Positions 2,979 through 57,280 of a DNA stretch of 64,000 nucleotides are shown in pieces. The stretch is from an uncultured Bacteroidales bacterium (GTDB lineage Bacteria > Bacteroidota > Bacteroidia > Bacteroidales > WCHB1-69): NCBI GenBank assembly GCA_905233585.1, contig CAJOFD010000003.1, forward strand, positions 4,201 to 68,200, in the 5' to 3' direction. Positions within the stretch are counted from its first letter, which is position 1; each line of letters opens with the position of its first letter. A program made the translations under genes and the position numbers. The notes beneath the pieces were generated by a model. The model was given only the letters and a program-made list of their open reading frames with translations, had not been told where the DNA came from and ran no database searches.

Positions 2979-3103
2979 CTTTATTTTAATTTTATATTAT
3001 TTTTTACAAATTTTATGCTTGCCTATTAACAAATAGACATACCAATCTATTACACAAAGAATATTACTTTCTTTATGCATATTAAAAGGTTTATGGATAT
3101 TAT

Positions 3104-3137
<34 letters not shown>

Positions 3138-3511
3138 CAATCAAGCAGTTACGTTTTTTGGGGAAGCAAAAAAATGACATTTTTTGCGAAAAATGCTTTT
3201 TTGTATTCCCGATTTGCCTGTTTGTTGCCATTTCCCAAATCCTTTCTTTTGTTGCAATCCCTATATTCTCTTTGTTTACTGATTTATAACATTAACTTAT
3301 TCAATGAGATTGCAAATGTAATCATTTTTTCAATATATATTGTAAATCTGCCTCAAATTTTTTTTATTTTTGCATTGTGATTTGAATTGACAATGAAAAA
3401 ACATCTTCTATAGACGGAACAATCGGCCTGTCTATTTTTTGAGGACAAATCTTTTCTTATTTATTTTTCATGGAAAAGATATCTATTGTTGATATTTTGA
3501 GTTTTTTTTAT

Positions 3512-13653: not shown

Positions 13654-14376
13654 TTGGAAAGTTATAAATTAGAGGAAAAAATAACTAAACTGCAATGGTC
13701 TCCACAACAAATAAAAGGATATTGTGATGCCAACAACATCCCGATGGTTTCCGTAGAATGGATATATCATTATATCAAATTAGACAAAGCCAATGGAGGT
13801 ACATTATATAAGCATTGTCGCCATCAATTGAAACATCGAAAGCGATATGTTGGTGCTGGGGTAAAACATATTCCTGATAGAGTGTCCATACATGAGAGGC
13901 CTGATATAGTGGAATATAGAATGGAATTTGGACATTTTAAGATGGATTTAATCCAAAATGGGAAGGATTTTATATTAGTCATAGTAGAAAGGAAGAGCAG
14001 GTATCTTTTTATGGTGCGATTACCCAAAGGGAAAAATGCAAAAGATGTGGCAAAATATGTTATAAAAATACTCAAACCCTATAAAAAATACATCAAATCT
14101 ATCACGACAGACAATGGAGGAGAATTTGCAGCCCATAAACTGATAGCCAAAGCCTTAGGCGTGCAAGTGTTCTTTACTGACTCATATAGTTCTTGGCAGA
14201 AGGGTACGGTAGAAAATACCAATAAATTAATCAGACAATATATACATAAAGATATGGATATACGTAATTTATCATATAATCAAATTATACTAATTCAAAA
14301 TAAGTTAAACTATAGACCAAGAAAAGTGCTTTTTTTCGATAAGCCTGCTAATATTTTTTATAACTTTGTTTGTTGA
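13654..14376 (+). pseudogene. IS30-family DDE transposase, 5'-truncated remnant
   Basis: Catalytic core is present: GHFKMDLI (D), ITTDNGGEF (D), SWQKGTVENTNKLIRQYI (E). The N-terminal HTH (~80-100 aa) is missing. The frame is closed by a stop at 13642 and only a TTG start is available. Confidence 0.8.
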
Positions 14377-14401: not shown

Positions 14402-14440
14402 AAAAAAGCATTTGTATTGCTTTTTTGTTTACTTTTGCAG
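14402..14440 (+). promoter_or_regulatory. conserved precursor-peptide promoter block (TTTG -33-like plus TACTTTTG -7 box)
   Basis: aaaaaagcatttgtattgcttttttgtttacttttgca. By hand alignment, ~34 of 39 nt are identical to 54807-54845, upstream of the second precursor. Confidence 0.55.
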
Positions 14441-14471: not shown

Positions 14472-14754
14472 ATGAGCAAAAAATTAAATTTAGAAATTAT
14501 AGAAAAAAGGAAGCAATGTAGAATTCTCCACAATAACAGGAGAGGATATGAATCAAATAAGAGGAGGTGCTAACCGTTGTGATTGCAAGAATCGTTGTGA
14601 TAACAAAAAATGTTGTTATACTATTTCGAGTAGTTTGACTGGGGATAAAACGATAAAAACGGATATCCCTGTTAATATTCCTATAAATATGCCAGATACA
14701 ACGAGTACAGATTCTACCTCAACTACATCTATTATTGGAATATTTGGATTTTAA
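14472..14754 (+). pseudogene. GG-leader RiPP precursor peptide 1; the leader is interrupted by a +1 frameshift in an A6 tract
   Basis: Frame A reads MSKKLNLEIIEK and then runs out of frame. Frame B (track ORF 14548-14754) reads ...GSNVEFSTITGEDMNQIRGG-ANRCDCKNRCDNKKCCYT.... Removing one A from the 14503-14508 run joins them into a typical Bacteroidetes double-glycine leader. Confidence 0.6.
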
Positions 14755-14759
14755 ATATT

Positions 14760-14797
14760 ATGGATGTCTCATTTAAATGAGAGCATATCCATTTTTT
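14760..14797 (+). terminator. hairpin plus T-run immediately after the precursor gene (attenuator/terminator)
   Basis: atggatgtctcattt/aaatgagagcatatccat imperfect hairpin followed by tttttt, ending just before ATG 14798. Confidence 0.5.
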
Positions 14798-16231
14798 ATG
14801 AAATCAAGATTTATATTTATATTTTTACTATTTTTTCATTCTCTTTGGGCACAAAACACGGAAACGAGTTCCTTATACATAAAGGGCTTCTTGTACCTAT
14901 GTGACAAATTAGAGGCTGTACACCCTAATATATATGCCAATTTGTCTGGTTTGGAGTATGAGAAATGGAAAAAAACATGTGAAGCGGAAGTTTCATTAAC
15001 CAAAAACGAAGTTGATTTTAAACTATTACTTGCAAAGTTTTTGGCTAAAATAGGAGATTCGCATACTCGTGTTATTATAAGTGAAAACAAGCATTTCCCT
15101 GTTACAATTCGTTTATTTAACGGAAAATATTACGTGGTAGCAGCGGAAAATCGCGATAGTATAGGTTTTGCTATTGATTATATAAATGGTGTGTCCATTG
15201 CACAAGTTCAGCTTATTTTAAGTGAATATATAAGTGCAGAAAATGAAGATTGTAAAATGTTTTATTTAACGGAATGCCTGCGTTCTCCTACTTGGCTTTC
15301 TCTCATTAATAACGGAAGAATCTTGGATACGCTTTCCATTACTATGAATAATGATAAAACAATTTCTATGAAAGCGATGGAAAAATGCACCGTATATTTA
15401 GATACTGCCTATAGTGAAATCTATCGTAAAAAACAGAGTAGTTTTTTTTATCGTATTGATACTTTGAACAATCTATGTATCTTGTATTTTAATGCAATGG
15501 AAGACAGAGCTTGTTTGTGTCGCACAAAGAAACAATTGTATAGCCGAAAATATTTAAAACAACCTTTGTTTTCTGAATTTTTAACTCAAATGTTTCAAGA
15601 AATGCGATGGCATAATATTCAAAATTTAGTTATAGATTTGCGGAACAATCAGGGGGGGAATAGTATGTTAGGCGACCAACTGCTTTATTTTATTGCAGAC
15701 AAAAAAGAAGTGGCAAACAAAATTACTATGAATACAAAAACACGTATATCAAAAGATTACAAAAAACAACGTTCATCTTCTCCTCATATCAGATACATAT
15801 ATGAGGAGAATAAATCTTTTGATAATTATACACATACTAATGAGAAATGGTTTTGGGAATTGGAAAATCCGAAAAGTATATGGTATATAAAAGATACAAC
15901 TTGTCGGTTTCATGGACAAGCCTATGTATTGGTGAGCAATTCCACCTATAGTGCAGCTTCGGATTTAGCATGGTATATGTCCTGTTTAAATATTCCTTTG
16001 ATAGGTGAACGTACAGCACAAGCCATTAATTGTTTTGGGGATTATTTGGAATTTGTTATGCCTAATTCAAAAATACCATTTACTGTAAGTTGCAAATATT
16101 TTTATGATAAAAATGCCAATACTGAGAATAGGGTTAATCCCACTATCCCCGTTTTATACGATTATGAAGATTTGCGACATGGATATGATAAACCAATGGA
16201 AAAAGTATTGGAAATAATAAGGAAAAACTAA
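14798..16231 (+). CDS. S41-family (tail-specific-like) serine peptidase, secreted
   Basis: LVIDLRNNQGGNS, NSTYSAASDLA (Ser nucleophile context) and LIGERTAQ motifs. Signal peptide MKSRFIFIFLLFFHSLWAQ. I prefer the start at 14798 over the track start 14777, which lies inside the hairpin. Confidence 0.8.
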   Translation: MKSRFIFIFLLFFHSLWAQNTETSSLYIKGFLYLCDKLEAVHPNIYANLSGLEYEKWKKTCEAEVSLTKNEVDFKLLLAKFLAKIGDSHTRVIISENKHFPVTIRLFNGKYYVVAAENRDSIGFAIDYINGVSIAQVQLILSEYISAENEDCKMFYLTECLRSPTWLSLINNGRILDTLSITMNNDKTISMKAMEKCTVYLDTAYSEIYRKKQSSFFYRIDTLNNLCILYFNAMEDRACLCRTKKQLYSRKYLKQPLFSEFLTQMFQEMRWHNIQNLVIDLRNNQGGNSMLGDQLLYFIADKKEVANKITMNTKTRISKDYKKQRSSSPHIRYIYEENKSFDNYTHTNEKWFWELENPKSIWYIKDTTCRFHGQAYVLVSNSTYSAASDLAWYMSCLNIPLIGERTAQAINCFGDYLEFVMPNSKIPFTVSCKYFYDKNANTENRVNPTIPVLYDYEDLRHGYDKPMEKVLEIIRKN

Positions 16232-16233
16232 AT

Positions 16234-17538
16234 ATGATTTGGTCTAGGTATAATTATTTGTTTAAATCGGAAAAATATGGATATTTGTTATATAACTCTT
16301 TGAGTAATGCTTTTTTGCACATTCCAGATAAAAGCATTGGATTTATTAAAGAAATACAAAATAATCCAAATTTAATAAATGAATATGACGAAAAAGAATA
16401 TTTTCAAGAAAACAAAATTATAGTAGAAAATGACGATGATGAAATCGCTGTATTAAAAGTTTGTGAATCTATAAATCGTTATACATCAAATTCACTAGGT
16501 TTAACAATAGCACCAACTTTGGGCTGTAATTTTCGTTGTTCTTATTGTTTTGAACTGAATAAACAAGGTTCACGAATGAGCACCGAAATACAACAAGCTA
16601 TTGTCAAATATGTAAAGAAACGAGATTTTATTACAGATTTGAGTGTAACTTGGTATGGGGGAGAACCATTGCTATGTATGGATATTATTGAACATTTAAC
16701 AAAAGAATTTTTGTCTTTAGGAAAAAGATATAATGCTGATATTGTTACAAACGGCTACCTGTTATCTATAGATGTTTTTAGACAATTACAAAAATTAAAA
16801 GTTTACACAATTCAAATTACTTTGGATGGATTAGCAGAAACACATAATAAACGCAGACCTCATGCTAATACAAATAATTCTTTTGAACAAATAATAAATA
16901 ATTTAGATACTATTATTCCCATTAAAGAAAATACAGATATTTCCATCCGTGTAAATATTGATAAAAAAAATAAAAATGAATTTCCTGAATTATATTTCTT
17001 TTTACAAAAACGATACAAAAATTCTGTTTTTGTTTACCCTGCTTTTGTAGAAAATCTTAATGGCACTTGTAAAACAAGTGATTGTATGCAAGATGTAGAT
17101 ACTATGACCCAATATTTAATAGAATTATATAATAATTATGGAATTTATGATCAGAAATTTTTTCCCAAATTAACATATTCAAGTTGTATGGTACGAGATT
17201 TGCGGTCTTATGTGGTGGACCCATTAGGAAAAATGTACAAATGTTGGAATGACATTGGCATTAAGGGAAAAGAAGTTGCCGATATTACTGAAGATAAAAT
17301 TATTAATCAAAATCTATTGGCTCGATATTTAAAAGGTGCAGATAAAATGGATTCGTCTGAATGTGCTGTATGTCATTTATATCCTGTTTGTAGCGGAGGT
17401 TGTCCATATCATCGTTTATTGTATGTATATAATAAGAAACAAGTGAATTTTTGCCATATAGGCAAACATTATTTAGAAAAATTGTTGGAAATACACTATG
17501 ATTGGAAAATGAAGCAACAAAATTCATACAAAAAATAA
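16234..17538 (+). CDS. radical SAM / SPASM-domain peptide maturase
   Basis: GCNFRCSYCFE (CX3CX2C). C-terminal SPASM cysteines CMVRDLRSYVVDPLGKMYKCWND...SECAVCHLYPVCSGGCPY. Confidence 0.9.
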   Translation: MIWSRYNYLFKSEKYGYLLYNSLSNAFLHIPDKSIGFIKEIQNNPNLINEYDEKEYFQENKIIVENDDDEIAVLKVCESINRYTSNSLGLTIAPTLGCNFRCSYCFELNKQGSRMSTEIQQAIVKYVKKRDFITDLSVTWYGGEPLLCMDIIEHLTKEFLSLGKRYNADIVTNGYLLSIDVFRQLQKLKVYTIQITLDGLAETHNKRRPHANTNNSFEQIINNLDTIIPIKENTDISIRVNIDKKNKNEFPELYFFLQKRYKNSVFVYPAFVENLNGTCKTSDCMQDVDTMTQYLIELYNNYGIYDQKFFPKLTYSSCMVRDLRSYVVDPLGKMYKCWNDIGIKGKEVADITEDKIINQNLLARYLKGADKMDSSECAVCHLYPVCSGGCPYHRLLYVYNKKQVNFCHIGKHYLEKLLEIHYDWKMKQQNSYKK

Positions 17539-17554
17539 ATTCAATCTTATTTAT

Positions 17555-18832
17555 ATGCCACAAATGTACCCGAATACTAATCAGTCTTATTATTCCGAAC
17601 CAGTTCAAGAGATATTGGGTCGTCCTCCACGTTGGATAATTAGAGCGGGTATCACGGTGATATTTGTTGTAGTGGCGTTGTTGTTTATCGGAAGTTATTT
17701 TATCAAATATCCGGATGTATTACAAGCCCCCATTACCGTAACTACCGCCCACTTGCCCGCTGGTGTTATGGCTCGGACAACGGGACGGATTGATACGATT
17801 TTTGTGAAAGAAAAACAATCTGTCCAAACCGGTGATTTATTGGCTGTAATGGAAAATGCTGCCCATTGGCAAGATGTACTTTGGCTGAAAAACAACGTGG
17901 ATTCAGCCGAGCGAAACACTTCTCTGCAATTAGGAGAGATTCAATCATACTATTTTGCCTATCTGAAAGCCAAAGAAGATTATGCCTATTTTTTACGGAT
18001 GGACTATCATCGCAGAAAAATAAAAGTATTGGAAAAACAGATACGTACCCAAAAGAATATGTTACAAAATGTACGAAAACAATTAGCGATACAAGAGCAA
18101 CAATTGGACATTTCGCGGGAAGTATTTTACATGGATTCCTCTTTGTATGCCCAAGACTTGATTTCCAAATTGGAATATGAAACCGCCCGAAGCAAATATT
18201 TGCAACAGCAACAAAATTACGATAATACCAAATTAGGGTTCCATAGTGAAGAAATGAGTATTTTGCAATTGGAACAAGATATTTTTGATTTGGAACAAGC
18301 ATGTATAGACGAGGAAAACACTCTTTCGTTGGCATTGAATGGAGCCAAAGACCAATTGCAAGCCCAATTGGCAGATTGGGAAAAGGCTTATCTGTTGTAT
18401 GCTCCATGCAATGGTATTGCCACCTTTACCAAATATTGGCAAAGAAATCAGAATGTTTCAGCAGGCGAAATATTAGTAACGGTTGTTCCTCAAGAGCAAA
18501 GTCATATTATTGGAAAGATATTGCTTCCTCCTCAAGGAGCAGGCAAAGTGGAAGTAGGACAAACCGTGAATGTCAAATTAGACAATTTTCCTTATATGGA
18601 ATATGGTATGGTCAAAGTCAATATTCAGCATATTTCTTTGGTTCCGGTTCAATTAACAGATGGAAGTCAGGCTTATATGTTAGAGGTTGAATTTCCTGAT
18701 AAATTGCAAACAACATATCACAAAGATTTGGTTTTTAGTCAAGAAATGACAGGTACCGCTGAAGTTATCACCAAAGATTTACGATTATTGGACAAATTTC
18801 TCAATCCCATTCGTTATGTTTTTCAGCGATAG
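17555..18832 (+). CDS. HlyD-family membrane fusion / secretion protein
   Basis: N-terminal TM (AGITVIFVVVALLFIGSYF), a long coiled-coil middle and a beta-barrel-like C-terminus. Sits directly upstream of the C39 ABC exporter. Confidence 0.8.
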   Translation: MPQMYPNTNQSYYSEPVQEILGRPPRWIIRAGITVIFVVVALLFIGSYFIKYPDVLQAPITVTTAHLPAGVMARTTGRIDTIFVKEKQSVQTGDLLAVMENAAHWQDVLWLKNNVDSAERNTSLQLGEIQSYYFAYLKAKEDYAYFLRMDYHRRKIKVLEKQIRTQKNMLQNVRKQLAIQEQQLDISREVFYMDSSLYAQDLISKLEYETARSKYLQQQQNYDNTKLGFHSEEMSILQLEQDIFDLEQACIDEENTLSLALNGAKDQLQAQLADWEKAYLLYAPCNGIATFTKYWQRNQNVSAGEILVTVVPQEQSHIIGKILLPPQGAGKVEVGQTVNVKLDNFPYMEYGMVKVNIQHISLVPVQLTDGSQAYMLEVEFPDKLQTTYHKDLVFSQEMTGTAEVITKDLRLLDKFLNPIRYVFQR

Positions 18833-18868: not shown

Positions 18869-21025
18869 GTGAAAAAAGAATTTCCTTTTTATAAACAATT
18901 AGATGCAATGGATTGCGGTCCTACTTGTCTGCGAATGATAGCCAAGCATTATGGCAAACATTATTCATTAGACACCTTACGACAAAAAAGTTTCATCGGA
19001 CGTGATGGCGTAAGTCTGTTGGGTATAGGAAAAGCAGCAGAAAGCATAGGCTTCCGTTCTTTAGGGGTAAAAATTTCTTTTTCCCAACTATGCGAAGCCC
19101 CATTGCCATGCATTGTACATTGGAAACAAAATCATTTTGTTGTAGTATATGACATTCGCTTAAACAAGCGGAAAAATGGAACGGCAGATGGTTGGGTTTA
19201 TGTGGCAGATCCCGCGACAGGAAAAATCAAATACCGTATTTCTGAATTTCTTCAAAATTGGTTGAGCATACAAAACGGCATGGAAAAAGAAGGGATTGCC
19301 ATGTTGTTGGAAGCTACCCCTGATTTTTATGCCGCTGAAGGTGAAAAAACGGACAAAACGCGTCTCCGTTTTGTATTGCAATATCTTAAACCTTACAAAA
19401 AACTGATAGTCCAACTTTTCTTGGGTATGTTGTTGGGAACTATCCTGCAACTGATTTTTCCGTTTTTAACTCAAACCATCGTTGATTATGGTATCGGTAA
19501 TGATAATTTGAGTTTCATTACTTTGATTTTAATAGCCCAATTAACACTTTATGTGGCACAAACTTCGGTAGAATTTATCCGTTCGTGGATATTGTTACAT
19601 ATCAGTACCAGAATCAATATATCCATTATTTCCGATTTTTTGTTGAAATTGATGAAATTGCCCATAGGATTTTTTGATACCAAAATGATAGGCGACCTTA
19701 TGCAACGCATAGGTGACCACAGCCGTATTGAGTCGTTTTTGACCTCCTCCACATTAAATACCTTGTTTTCTTTTGTTAATCTGATAGTTTTCAGTGTGGT
19801 TTTGGCTGCATATAATTGGAAATTGTTTTTCGTATTTTTATTTGCCAGCATCATTTATGTTTTGTGGATAAGTTTATTCTTGAAAAAACGAAAAGAATTG
19901 GACTATAAACGTTTTGCACAAGCATCTGCCGAGCAAAGCAATCTATATCAAATGATAACGGGTATGCAGGAAATTAAACTCAACAATTGTGAAAAACAAA
20001 AACGTTGGGAATGGGAAAATATACAGGCAAATTTATTCAAAGTAAGTGTAAAAGGATTGGCCTTGAGCCAATACCAGCAAACAGGTGCTTTTTTTATCAA
20101 TGAGACCAAAAATATTTTGATTTCTTTTTTATCAGCGGCAGCAGTTATCAAGGGTGATATGACTTTAGGTATGATGACTGCTGTACAATATATTATTGGA
20201 CAGTTAAATTCTCCTATAAATCAAATGATTGGATTTATTCAGTCTGCCCAAGATGCCAAAATCAGTTTGGAACGTTTGGGCGAAATTCACAACAAAGAAG
20301 ATGAGGATGAACACACAGAAGCAAGGATAATTGCCTTGCCCGAACATCATAGTATAAGTTTTCAAAACGTAAGTTTCCGTTATGATGTTTTGGGCAAAAA
20401 TGTTTTGGAGGATATTTGTTTGCAGATTCCTCAAGGCAAGATTACAGCCATTGTAGGTATGAGTGGAAGTGGTAAAACAACCTTAGTCAAACTGATGTTA
20501 GGTTTTTATCCTCCAACACAAGGAGAAATCAGGGTGGGACAAACCGCCTTGCAAAATATAGACCCGCATTGGTGGAGGCAGCGTTGCGGAGCCGTTATGC
20601 AAGATGGCTTTATATTTTCGGATTCCATTGCCAAAAATATTGCTATCGGAGAGGATATTATCGACAATCATCGATTGCTTCATGCCGCTGAAGTTGCCAA
20701 TATTCAAGAGATGGTTTCATCTCTGCCTTTAGGCTTTCAAACCAAAATCGGACAAGAAGGAAAAGGAATATCCCAAGGTCAGAAACAACGGATTTTGATA
20801 GCACGAGCCGTTTACAAAAATCCCGATTTTATCTTCTTCGATGAAGCGACAAATGCCTTGGATGCCAACAATGAACGCATTATCATGGATAATCTTCAAC
20901 AGTTTTTTAAAGGCAAAACGGTTGTCATTGTTGCTCATCGTTTAAGTACTGTTAAAAATGCGGATAATATTCTTGTTATCAATAACGGTAGAATTTCCGA
21001 ACAGGGAACCCACGAATATTTATAA
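18869..21025 (+). CDS. peptidase-C39-domain ABC transporter (bacteriocin/RiPP exporter), 3'-truncated by prophage insertion
   Basis: C39 motif QLDAMDCGPTCLRMIAKHYG; six-TM domain; Walker A GMSGSGKTT; signature ISQGQKQR; Walker B FIFFDEATNALD; H-loop VAHRLST. The ORF ends at ...EQGTHEYL* exactly at the phage junction, and the rest of the C-terminus is at 54724-54790. Confidence 0.9.
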   Translation: MKKEFPFYKQLDAMDCGPTCLRMIAKHYGKHYSLDTLRQKSFIGRDGVSLLGIGKAAESIGFRSLGVKISFSQLCEAPLPCIVHWKQNHFVVVYDIRLNKRKNGTADGWVYVADPATGKIKYRISEFLQNWLSIQNGMEKEGIAMLLEATPDFYAAEGEKTDKTRLRFVLQYLKPYKKLIVQLFLGMLLGTILQLIFPFLTQTIVDYGIGNDNLSFITLILIAQLTLYVAQTSVEFIRSWILLHISTRINISIISDFLLKLMKLPIGFFDTKMIGDLMQRIGDHSRIESFLTSSTLNTLFSFVNLIVFSVVLAAYNWKLFFVFLFASIIYVLWISLFLKKRKELDYKRFAQASAEQSNLYQMITGMQEIKLNNCEKQKRWEWENIQANLFKVSVKGLALSQYQQTGAFFINETKNILISFLSAAAVIKGDMTLGMMTAVQYIIGQLNSPINQMIGFIQSAQDAKISLERLGEIHNKEDEDEHTEARIIALPEHHSISFQNVSFRYDVLGKNVLEDICLQIPQGKITAIVGMSGSGKTTLVKLMLGFYPPTQGEIRVGQTALQNIDPHWWRQRCGAVMQDGFIFSDSIAKNIAIGEDIIDNHRLLHAAEVANIQEMVSSLPLGFQTKIGQEGKGISQGQKQRILIARAVYKNPDFIFFDEATNALDANNERIIMDNLQQFFKGKTVVIVAHRLSTVKNADNILVINNGRISEQGTHEYL

Positions 21026-54167: not shown

Positions 54168-54597
54168 TTTTTTTATTAAGTTTTAGATGTTTTTTTACAT
54201 AAAGTATTGAAATATAACGATATAATTATATATTAATATGTCAATTATATGTCAATTATATTCAATTAAAGGGTATCAAACTCGCAAAAAAAGCCGTTTT
54301 TTTGTGCGTTTTTTGCAACTATACCCATATGAACTACACACAAATGACGTAGTTTTTGCCGTAGTTTTGCCGTAACTCGTATTTTTTTTTAATTTTTTTT
54401 AATTTTTCATTTTCGCAGTAATGCGTCTTTATGTGCGTCTGTCTTTCGTTTTTAATGCTTGTTTTTTCTATTTTTTTACGTAAACAAAAACGCACAAAAC
54501 CCCGCAAATACAGTCGTTTGTACGCAATTAAACAAAAATATAAGATTGTTCTAATCCAATTAAAAAAGTCTTTAAAAAAAGCGTTTAAAATCTGCCA

Positions 54598-54630
54598 AAA
54601 ATTAAAGCAAAATTAAAGCAAAATTAAAGA
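54598..54630. repeat. 11-bp tandem repeat x3 (aaaattaaagc) abutting the inner transposase-binding site
   Basis: Read directly; two perfect copies plus one with a single change. Confidence 0.85.
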
Positions 54631-54723: not shown

Positions 54724-54790
54724 ATATTTGACCAACTTTAAAGGAGAATATTTTAATTTGGTAAAAAATCAATTGGAATTGGGAATTTAA
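54724..54790 (+). pseudogene. displaced 3' end of the C39 ABC exporter gene
   Basis: Joining ...GTHEY at 21019 to 54728 onward reads in frame as GTHEYLTNFKGEYFNLVKNQLELGI*. This is the canonical C-terminus of this exporter family. Confidence 0.8.
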
Positions 54791-54806: not shown

Positions 54807-54845
54807 AAAAAAGAATTTGTATTATTTTTTTGATTACTTTTGCGA
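54807..54845 (+). promoter_or_regulatory. conserved precursor-peptide promoter block, copy 2 (TACTTTTG -7 box at 54835-54842)
   Basis: aaaaaagaatttgtattatttttttgattacttttgcg; ~34/39 identical to 14402-14440. Confidence 0.55.
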
Positions 54846-54899: not shown

Positions 54900-55186
54900 A
54901 TGGAAAAAATAGATAAATAGATAAATATAAAAATGCAAAATTAGAAAACATGGATGCCATTATAGGTGGGAGGGAAGTTAGAAAATCTTATAATAGCAAT
55001 ACAGACATTCATCATGTTTTGCAAGATAAAACTATTTATAATAATAATGGTTGTATTGTTAAAGTCAAATTATGGGATGAGGGCGTAAAATATGTAGCTA
55101 CATATGCAGGAGATTGTCAGAATGGTTATGACGGCTCTATTCCAAAGGACGGAAATAAAGCAACGAGGGAATATTTTAGTATTTAA
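54900..55186 (+). pseudogene. GG-leader RiPP precursor peptide 2; the leader is interrupted by a perfect 8-bp tandem duplication
   Basis: ATG 54900 reads MEKIDK*. The track ORF frame reads IDKYKNAKLENMDAIIGG-REVRKSYNS.... ATAGATAA is duplicated at 54909-54916 and 54917-54924. Deleting one copy gives MEKIDKYKNAKLENMDAIIGG plus a 71-aa core. Confidence 0.6.
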
Positions 55187-55228: not shown

Positions 55229-56131
55229 ATGAGAATATTATTCTTGTCATTATTTTTCTTTATCTTGTGTTTAAAAGATGGACTTTCCCAGTCGGATTAC
55301 CTTACCTATTTCCGATTAAAAAATAAAGCGGAAGTTGCTATTTGTCAAGATCAATATGCCAATGCCTTAAATTACTACAAATTGGCATTTCAAGTAGTGG
55401 ATTTCCCATTATATAAGGAGTTAAACAATGCTTTTATTTGCTCTTTATTAGTGGGGGATACTGTTTATTTATATGATTCCCTATCCATTTATTCGGGACG
55501 CATAGATTTAAATCGTATTGAAAATCAATATTATATTCAATCCTATTCCAATACACAAACATGGAAGCAATTTGTGAAACAAGCAAATATTTATAGAACT
55601 ATTGCAACAAACAGCATCAATAATAATTATATACGGTTATTGGATTCTTTAGATAAAGAGGACCAAAAACCACGTCAGATAGGCATTACGAAAAGAAACA
55701 AAATAGCAAAAATAGATAGTTTAATTGCTATTGCTACAGATCAATTAATGCATTGTTGGGATTATCCTAATGAACGAAATACAGGTCTAAAATATGTAAC
55801 AAACTCTCCGATATGTATTTGGCATAGAATTGATACGACATTCATTAATTATGAATATCAAATGTTGTGTGAGGGGAAAATGGAGCCAGAACTTTATGTA
55901 AGAAAAAAAAGTTATGCTTCCTCAATACAAGTTGTCATGAAAAAATCAATAATAGAGAAAGACAAATATTGTAGACTTTCATTTTCAAAACTGACAACAA
56001 TGGAATTAGAAGAAGTGAATAAAAATCGTTCAGCTATAGGTTTCCCCACTACAGAAGAGTGGAAAATTTTATGCAAAGCACGGAAAGAAAAAACAGAAAT
56101 GGGTTTTATCTTTCATATATTTATACTATGA
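55229..56131 (+). CDS. secreted protein of unknown function in RiPP module 2
   Basis: Signal peptide MRILFLSLFFFILCLKDGLSQ. 300 aa. ATGA-coupled to the ATP-grasp gene. Confidence 0.6.
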   Translation: MRILFLSLFFFILCLKDGLSQSDYLTYFRLKNKAEVAICQDQYANALNYYKLAFQVVDFPLYKELNNAFICSLLVGDTVYLYDSLSIYSGRIDLNRIENQYYIQSYSNTQTWKQFVKQANIYRTIATNSINNNYIRLLDSLDKEDQKPRQIGITKRNKIAKIDSLIAIATDQLMHCWDYPNERNTGLKYVTNSPICIWHRIDTTFINYEYQMLCEGKMEPELYVRKKSYASSIQVVMKKSIIEKDKYCRLSFSKLTTMELEEVNKNRSAIGFPTTEEWKILCKARKEKTEMGFIFHIFIL

Positions 56132-57099
56132 TTGTTATTGTTTCTCAAGAAAACGATAGTTCTACAAATGATGTAATGGATTGGTTATACGCATGGAATA
56201 AAAAAGTTGTGCGAATCAATGAAACCGATACAATTAATTCATTCTCTTTACAAATAGATGATAATGATCTGTCTTTAATTTTTCGTTGTGGAAACAAAGA
56301 ATTTAAAATATCTGACGTAGATTATTTTTGGTTTCGAAGAGGAGGCTTTGTGTTTGATGTGTCATTTCTAACAAAAATAGAACCGCATTTTTATACGTAT
56401 TTAAAAGAACACTTATCAGATGAGTGTAACACAATGAAGGATTTTTTAGTTTATTTATTAAATAAGAAACCTTCTTTGGGTAATTATTATCAGGGAAATG
56501 CAAATAAATTAATAAGTTTATATGTTGCTCAAAAAGTTGGAATGGAAATACCCAATACCATAATTTCTTCTGCCAAGGAAGATTTACTACATTTTTACAA
56601 AAATCAGAAATCGAGTATAACAAAATTTATACAAGATGTTTTATGTTTTAATTATCAAGGATATAGATATTATACAAATACTTCCCTTGTTGAAAAAAAC
56701 GACATAAAAAAAATGAGGGGAACCTTTTTCCCATCCCTTTTACAAAAGGAAATACATAAACGTTATGAATTGAGAATTTTTTATTTAAAGGGGAAATGTT
56801 ATTCTATGGCAATATTTTCACAAGAAGATAAACAAACAGTTATTGATTTTCGAAACTATAATGACCAAATTCCTAATCGTTATGTTCCTTATAAACTACC
56901 TCATAATATTGAAGATAAAATAGATAAGTTTATGCATAAAATGAATTTAGATACAGGTTCTATAGATATGATTGTTACGCCTGATTTAAAATATATTTTT
57001 TTAGAAGTTAATCCTGTTGGACAATATGATATGGTATCTGTTCCATGCAATTATTATCTACATAAAAAAATAGCACAAACAATTAGTAACAATGAATAA
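56128..57099 (+). CDS. ATP-grasp peptide ligase (RiPP maturase, MvdC/D-like)
   Basis: Start reassigned to MIVIVSQENDSST (ATG 56128). Motifs NKLISLYVAQKVGMEIPNT, ELRIFYLKGKCYSMAIFS, VIDFRNY and GSIDMIVTPDLKYIFLEVNPVGQY. Confidence 0.8.
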   Translation: MIVIVSQENDSSTNDVMDWLYAWNKKVVRINETDTINSFSLQIDDNDLSLIFRCGNKEFKISDVDYFWFRRGGFVFDVSFLTKIEPHFYTYLKEHLSDECNTMKDFLVYLLNKKPSLGNYYQGNANKLISLYVAQKVGMEIPNTIISSAKEDLLHFYKNQKSSITKFIQDVLCFNYQGYRYYTNTSLVEKNDIKKMRGTFFPSLLQKEIHKRYELRIFYLKGKCYSMAIFSQEDKQTVIDFRNYNDQIPNRYVPYKLPHNIEDKIDKFMHKMNLDTGSIDMIVTPDLKYIFLEVNPVGQYDMVSVPCNYYLHKKIAQTISNNE

Positions 57100-57280
57100 A
57101 AAAAAATTTATAGAGATTATTCATGATCAGGGAGATAGAGCATATCCTCTTCATTATAAGGATGTTAAAATGCGAAAAAATCGAATTGGGAAATTTCAAC
57201 AAAATATTTTTGTTGAAATGTTTCAATCTAAATGTTGTGAATCCTTTTGTTATTATAAACCTATTTCTAAAATATTGTGA
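57092..57280 (+). CDS. small Cys-rich ORF between the ATP-grasp and SPASM genes (candidate substrate or accessory peptide)
   Basis: 62 aa, MNKKKFIEIIHDQGD...FQSKCCESFCYYKPISKIL. Its start overlaps the ATP-grasp stop and its stop overlaps the next gene. Confidence 0.4.
   Translation: MNKKKFIEIIHDQGDRAYPLHYKDVKMRKNRIGKFQQNIFVEMFQSKCCESFCYYKPISKIL

Follow-up and report, generated by a model that had tools for sequence, protein, structure and literature searches.

An eight-base tandem duplication frameshifts a putative grasp-with-spasm graspetide precursor gene in an uncultured Bacteroidales bacterium

A double-glycine (GG) leader that is interrupted after six codons by a perfect eight-base tandem repeat raises the question of whether the gene is a true peptide precursor that has been broken and, if so, whether the break reflects decay or a reversible means of turning a costly product off. 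This arrangement is found in precursor 2, the second of two putative precursor genes in a 64,000-nucleotide stretch of contig CAJOFD010000003.1 from an uncultured Bacteroidales bacterium (assembly GCA_905233585.1), hereafter called the window. The original prediction on this DNA held that both precursors are disabled in their leaders, that their shared exporter is clipped by a phage, and that decay and switching are equally good accounts of the duplication.

The repeat is present as first described: the octamer ATAGATAA occurs twice in tandem, at 54909-54916 and 54917-54924, and the duplication can also be parsed as AAATAGAT AAATAGAT AAATA, a perfect period-8 run covering 54907-54927. Read from 54900, the window gives ATG GAA AAA ATA GAT AAA TAG, which encodes MEKIDK before a TAG stop, and deletion of one octamer in silico yields the leader MEKIDKYKNAKLENMDAIIGG followed by a 71-residue core ending at 55186, in agreement with both translations originally proposed. 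The largest open reading frame left in the two-copy allele is one of 78 residues from an internal ATG at 54950. The gene and its remnants are as follows:

54900-55186, + strand: putative precursor 2 gene, frameshifted in the window; 92 residues with one octamer (21-residue GG leader plus 71-residue core with two conserved Cys), found as protein P0003 on seven contigs and 58% identical to the homolog P0002 over the full length, leader included
54900-54920, + strand: leftover six-codon frame MEKIDK-TAG, from reading of the sequence
54907-54927, + strand: perfect period-8 run with two copies of ATAGATAA inside, aligned to an 8-base gap in contigs L003, L004, L006, L015, L017, L023, and L026
54950-55186, + strand: leftover 78-residue frame from the leader Met at -7 (MDAIIGG...), which is the gene-caller annotation in two-copy genomes (protein P0001, three contigs)

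By itself the octamer duplication is statistically unremarkable (six perfect 8-bp tandem duplications in the window versus about 1.6 expected, with a maximum of seven, in first-order Markov simulations), and its status as a mutation rests on comparison of the locus. In the one-copy allele two AAATA pentamers lie 8 nt apart, as would be expected if the duplication arose by replication slippage, and the leader DNA around the octamer is quasi-periodic, with a period of 8 over 54905-54948 (5.5 copies, 77% match). Rescue of the two-copy allele by ribosomal frameshifting was considered and rejected: with TAA at 54914-54916 in the target frame and TAG at 54918-54920 in the zero frame, the stops leave an opening of a single codon and would require a -1 slip of tRNA-Lys onto UAA.

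Exact-protein look-ups found the locus in about ten metagenome assemblies. One octamer is present in seven to eight metagenome contigs and two octamers in three contigs:

One octamer, 92-residue gene called: contigs L003/L014, L004/L016/L028, L006, L015/L027, L017/L024, L023, and L026; samples ERZ28573572, ERZ28573591, ERZ27234818, ERZ1667812, ERZ28573570, ERZ27234820, and ERR3525317
Two octamers: contigs L001/L005/L025 and L002 and the window; samples ERZ1667847 and ERR3525319 and the NCBI genome

Copy numbers of one and two are the only ones found across these assemblies. Alleles compared over 3.4-4.4 kb differ by the 8-base gap and zero to two substitutions, and the protein collection holds the 92-residue form on seven contigs versus the 78-residue form on three. 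The two-copy form occurs in the NCBI genome, an ENA MEGAHIT-type k87 assembly, and a Logan assembly, three sources whose independence is uncertain, as ERZ1667847 and ERR3525319 may represent one sample or study and the NCBI genome may be a bin from it. When contigs are compared, the two-copy allele is restricted to a haplotype free of SNPs, on which one-copy alleles are found too, and its presence on this haplotype alone fits a single recent origin. The outgroup locus (contig L013, encoding P0002) has the one-octamer length and no repeat at the octamer position, which makes one copy the ancestral state and two copies a derived frameshift. Relatives do not all share the two-copy form but are mostly one-copy by contig count, and the natural one-copy alleles uphold the view that the duplication is a genuine lesion of a GG-leader precursor beside ATP-grasp and SPASM maturases. 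An exact-pattern scan of JGI metagenome contigs with the leader DNA gave no match, and the sample accessions had no match in the literature. The octamer duplication is very probably a recent, ordinary loss-of-function frameshift allele in one lineage, and most other sampled members of the same population keep an intact gene.

The precursor family to which this allele belongs has only two members in a database of 5.8 billion proteins, precursor 2 and P0002, a 95-residue protein of another species (assembly GCA_045534635.1) whose leader MESIENFKNHKIDDMHSVVGG aligns to that of precursor 2 from residue 1. Leader residues 1-14 are conserved between the two, and the precursor 2 core holds two conserved Cys and the conserved block KVK-WDEGVKYV-TYAGDCQNGY. 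No curated precursor model matched precursor 2, and no Pfam or NCBIfam family matched either precursor. In this leader, GG marks the predicted cleavage site, positions -4 and -7 are hydrophobic, and position -9 is acidic; the GG leaders of relatives are 21-28 residues long. These traits, together with an adjacent C39-domain exporter, resemble those of class II bacteriocins and PCAT substrates; unlike C39-ABC export substrates, the two-copy allele would translate only the last seven leader residues, and the exporter is 19 residues short at its C-terminus. Double-glycine leaders conserve a hydrophobic residue at -7. The intact homolog P0002 has Met there (MHSVVGG) and a Flavobacterium relative has Leu, and the internal Met seven residues before GG, which had been read as an oddity shared by the two precursors, is therefore a normal feature of such leaders. 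The automatically called 78-residue protein in the window is a truncated remnant and the true precursor has 92 residues; the lesson for genome mining is to take precursors from one-copy relatives and to distrust the annotated short open reading frame.

Directly downstream of precursor 2 are four genes:

55229-56131, + strand: 300-residue protein with a signal-like N-terminus and a conserved position next to the precursor (304-residue counterpart in L013)
56128-57099, + strand: putative GwsG ATP-grasp peptide maturase, intact (TIGR04192, 335.5 bits, cutoff 230, profile positions 1-317 of 318)
57092-57280, + strand: small LPL-like protein of 62 residues with a conserved PL-Y motif, encoded immediately before the SPASM gene (comparison with L013 and L021; PMC8939145)
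57277-58398, + strand: putative GwsS SPASM-domain peptide maturase, intact (TIGR04193, 284 bits, cutoff 175, profile positions 3-333 of 342)

Because both maturases score above curated cutoffs and the layout is that of branch 5 in PMC8939145, the locus is, as judged from its sequence, of a known type, a Bacteroidota grasp-with-spasm (branch 5) graspetide cluster. Branch 5 loci are described as Bacteroidetes-specific (Makarova et al. 2022, PMC8939145) and as combining an ATP-grasp enzyme and a TIGR04193 SPASM enzyme with a small "LPL" protein encoded in every case immediately before the SPASM gene, an uncharacterised protein termed "cluster 23", and hyperdiverse precursors with a GG motif (PMC8939145). 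Grasp-with-spasm clusters are also treated in a P. gingivalis ICE preprint (10.64898/2026.08.04.741601), and no characterised product of branch 5 was found in the literature on these clusters. Like other branch 5 clusters, the window locus has a GG-leader precursor beside the ATP-grasp gene and a C39-ABC exporter and HlyD protein nearby, and its tiny, divergent precursor family matches the reported precursor hyperdiversity; the small PL-motif protein encoded just before its SPASM gene is a candidate LPL protein. Unlike them, it has a precursor that is broken by an 8-bp duplication and that matches no curated model.

The LPL-like assignment of the 62-residue protein comes from a comparison of position and motif, with no LPL profile: its position is kept in L013 and L021, and P19, L20, and Y22 (P-L-x-Y) are invariant. 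Neither this protein nor the 300-residue protein has a Pfam or NCBIfam family match, and BLASTP of the latter against its positional counterpart in L021 gave no support for a cluster 23 identity. A scan of species-representative genomes with GwsG returned only two distant relatives, with 37-44% identity; GldF and GldG indicate that the host belongs to Bacteroidota. The 62-residue gene starts ATG AAT AAA AAA AAA, with a slippage-prone A9 run at 57098-57106 (codons 3-5) that is invariant among the contigs compared.

A second module lies at some distance upstream in the window:

14472-14754, + strand: putative precursor 1, Cys-rich, its GG leader split between two frames at an A6 run (14503-14508); an internal Met at 14548 opens a 68-residue frame
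14777-16231, + strand: peptidase S41-like protein of the radical SAM module (PF03572 listed; weak S41 matches)
16234-17538, + strand: putative radical SAM/SPASM peptide maturase, intact in the window; in L009 and L012 the A8 run at 16963-16970 is A9, which breaks the frame
17555-18832, + strand: HlyD-family membrane fusion protein (TIGR01843, 1e-32, below the curated cutoff)
18908-21025, + strand: C39-peptidase ABC exporter without its last 19 residues (alignments end 12-16 positions before the model ends; C-termini compared)

In its intact form the exporter has 724 residues and a Peptidase_C39 domain (PF03412), and it matches bacteriocin ABC models strongly at scores below their equivalog cutoffs. 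Contigs free of the phage run from this 724-residue exporter across a gap of about 110 bp into precursor 2, and both modules also occur together in the relative L013, arranged in another order. Directly upstream of precursor 1, a truncated rve-type integrase (an IS fragment with a TTG start, 13654-14376) is present in all samples; in L007, five substitutions cluster at 14246-14286, at the 3' end of this fragment.

Precursor 1 was proposed to be disabled in parallel with precursor 2. A frameshift at its A6 run is indeed present, with the leader reading MSKKLNLEIIEK in one frame and (K)KGSNVEFSTITGEDMNQIRGG in the +1 frame, and this part of the claim stands. The parallel itself is only formal: the single-base offset is identical in all seven sequences available (the window and six contigs), including samples in which the rest of the island is intact, and no homolog other than precursor 1 itself, and thus no intact relative, was found in the database, which makes the resemblance to precursor 2 superficial. 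The precursor 1 offset is fixed among these sequences, unlike the polymorphic lesion of precursor 2, and need not be a lesion. At the frame break (14496-14515) the zero frame reads GAA AAA AGG, in which AGG is among the rarest codons of the window's host genes (2.5 per 1000), and a +1 slip of a Lys-tRNA on the A run would shift translation into the frame of the remaining leader. Programmed +1 frameshifting in precursor 1 is a possibility, and these data would fit equally well a pseudogene that became fixed in a nearly clonal population.

The two precursor genes share an upstream element:

54815-54843, + strand: 29-nt element before precursor 2 with a TAnnTTTG-type box, spared by the phage (two matches in the window, 0 expected)
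14410-14438, + strand: second copy of the element, 26 of 29 positions identical, 34 nt before the precursor 1 ATG

This element, ATTTGTATTnnTTTTTTGnTTACTTTTGC, is found in the window only upstream of the two precursor genes, and it is kept in all same-species loci that cover either site. Its spacing from TTTG to TAnnTTTG is 15 nt, shorter than in the canonical Bacteroidetes promoter; the canonical pattern TTTG-N17-21-TAnnTTTG had no match upstream of either precursor, and a sigma-70 scan was uninformative. The element probably serves both genes as a promoter or regulatory site; its presence before both precursors points to co-regulation and favors the upstream ATGs as true start codons.

Both precursors retain a short open frame. 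The two-copy allele of precursor 2 could be imagined as a version of lowered or retuned output, in which initiation or restart at the Met at -7 (54950) gives a 78-residue peptide whose seven-residue leader, MDAIIGG, is still modified and cleaved. Initiation in Bacteroidota does not depend on a Shine-Dalgarno sequence. As the DNA upstream of the internal ATG is A-rich, some 78-residue product could be made, and the frame is uninterrupted and retains the GG-motif residues at -7, -4, -2, and -1. For precursor 1, too, all seven sequences show nothing but a comparable short form, among them samples with intact radical SAM, peptidase, HlyD, and ABC genes, which could mean that short leaders are tolerated in this organism. 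Set against this, all intact relatives keep a leader of 21-28 residues, the conservation between the two family members falls on leader residues 1-14, the majority allele encodes the full leader, and the ATP-grasp enzymes of graspetides are considered to rely on conserved parts of the leader (PMC8939145). We consider a functional short form of precursor 2 unlikely, and retain the reading of the duplication as a null allele.

What separates the two modules in the window is a phage:

21022-54723, unstranded: Mu-like transposable prophage of 33.7 kb, flanked by a 6-bp target duplication, ATATTT (21016-21021 and 54724-54729)

The element is a Mu-like transposable prophage by its transposase and MuB-like protein, its target duplication, its end sites, and its tailed-phage genes. 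PHROGs identified the transposase (phrog_310), which Pfam missed, and a MuB-like DNA transposition protein (phrog_296), along with portal, protease, major head, sheath, and tape measure genes. The terminal inverted repeats hold repeated AAAACGAAATGT(G/A)CAA sites, and the GC content is 40.5% versus 32-36% in the host flanks. Mu itself generates a target duplication of 5 bp, compared with 6 bp for the prophage in the window. The prophage looks complete and of the myovirus type; megablast of its DNA against a collection of 50,697 phage records gave no match. Tandem repeats lie in its non-coding right arm, just inside the terminal transposase sites, at 54236-54268, 54383-54407, and 54598-54629 (an 11-bp unit in 3.1 copies, a 10-bp unit in 2.5 copies, and AAAATTAAAGC in 2.9 copies).

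Comparison of C-termini bears out the claim that the phage clips the exporter: the intact protein ends in ...GTHEYLTNFKGEYFNLVKNQLELGI and the window protein in ...GTHEYL, and the 19 residues removed, TNFKGEYFNLVKNQLELGI, fall within the conserved part of the family models. We assume that this loss impairs the exporter. The prophage also separates the precursor 2 module from the rest of the island, and its junction with the host DNA is only 185 bp away from the octamer. The insertion is found in the window and in L020 (ERZ27234821), with junction reads in ERZ1667847 and ERZ28573570, and its linkage to the duplication is physically seen in the window only. Sample ERZ28573570 holds a phage junction (L018) alongside a one-copy contig (L017) that starts exactly at the junction, and could represent a phage-positive one-copy genome or a mixed population. 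Contigs of ERZ28573570 and ERZ1667847 break at the phage junction, a pattern that mixtures of lysogens and non-lysogens, or active transposition, may explain.

Further lesions are present elsewhere in the island. The radical SAM gene is split into two open reading frames by the A8 to A9 change in L009 and L012 (ERZ27234821 and ERZ1667847), and the ATP-grasp gene of L015/L027 (ERZ1667812) has a 43-bp deletion, corresponding to window positions 56679-56721, that leaves frames of 219 and 97 residues. At the start of the same contig lies an inverted 171-bp segment of the ABC gene, the product of either a rearrangement or chimeric assembly. Five of the six substitutions in cluster genes are non-synonymous, six being too few for a test of selection. 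Several independent disabling events in a nearly clonal population point to erosion of the island, and the lesions and substitutions together fit relaxed or negative selection. Against this reading, the downstream maturase genes are fully intact in the window, so that any decay of this module began with the duplication at the earliest.

Taking these observations together, a spontaneous slipped-strand duplication that created a recent frameshift null allele of a branch 5 graspetide precursor is very probably the correct explanation. The ancestral one-octamer gene would encode a 92-residue peptide whose 21-residue GG leader is bound by the maturases and removed by the neighboring C39-ABC exporter, and the conserved Lys, Asp, Glu, and Thr residues and two Cys of the core would be those modified by the ATP-grasp and SPASM enzymes, perhaps through the ester or amide cross-links originally proposed. 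Misalignment during replication between the AAATA copies would duplicate the intervening 8 nt, placing a stop after codon 6 so that two thirds of the leader would be missing from any product. The duplication would have arisen on a genome that also carried the exporter-truncating Mu-like prophage, and, if the island is dispensable, its erosion may be neutral, or may be favored once export is impaired. Pseudogenization of bacteriocin and RiPP loci by mobile elements and small indels is the known pattern that fits the data best: here too a prophage in the exporter is combined with frameshifts and deletions in precursor and maturase genes in a nearly clonal population, and nothing notable differs.

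A less ordinary outcome would be that the octamer forms a minimal reversible on/off switch, or that the disabling allele was positively selected after the prophage crippled the exporter; taken together we regard these as quite unlikely. If selection did act, cells with a silenced precursor would escape a build-up of unexported modified peptide, and under either selection or switching, both states would persist in natural populations as a balanced graspetide polymorphism. For the switch alone, in which slippage between one and two octamers would turn a costly or toxic peptide on and off, some features are compatible. As at contingency loci of Neisseria, Haemophilus, and Campylobacter, the repeat lies in the first codons of the gene, the usual place of on/off switches, and its copy number sets the frame, one copy in and two out. 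The surrounding leader DNA has a quasi-period of 8, another slippage-prone site of the island is polymorphic too (the radical SAM A8/A9 run), and both alleles apparently occur within the same study series (ERR3525317 with one octamer and ERR3525319 with two; ERZ1667812 with one and ERZ1667847 with two). Known repeat-based phase variation uses long tracts, and compared with these, two copies of an 8-nt unit make a poor slippage substrate. Unlike contingency loci, the octamer has two states only, with one or two copies and no long multi-state tract, and would slip rarely; among the assembled contigs compared, the two-copy allele sits on one haplotype with no sign of recurrence on others. The outgroup leader is without a repeat at this position, the phage insertion and the 43-bp deletion in the same island are irreversible, and the window's five other perfect 8-bp tandem duplications have no such role suggested for them. 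We therefore depart from the original view that decay and switching are equally likely, and place the switch by itself as very unlikely. A sequencing or assembly artefact is extremely improbable, as originally judged, even in this AT-rich and quasi-repetitive region, as the two-copy sequence recurs in three assemblies made by different pipelines and an 8-base insertion is atypical of read error.

The octamer duplication itself reveals no new mechanism. Read as a slippage-born null allele, it provides a natural allele pair, intact versus frameshifted and otherwise identical over 3.4 kb, for an uncharacterised grasp-with-spasm precursor, and the case shows a two-module peptide-biosynthesis island of a nearly clonal population being worn down by a Mu-like prophage and small indels. 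Elsewhere in the window, a perfect (AG)15.5 microsatellite at 3105-3135, about 415 bp upstream of ffh and inside a 101-residue open reading frame (3075-3380), is unusually long for a bacterial genome and would be slippage-prone.
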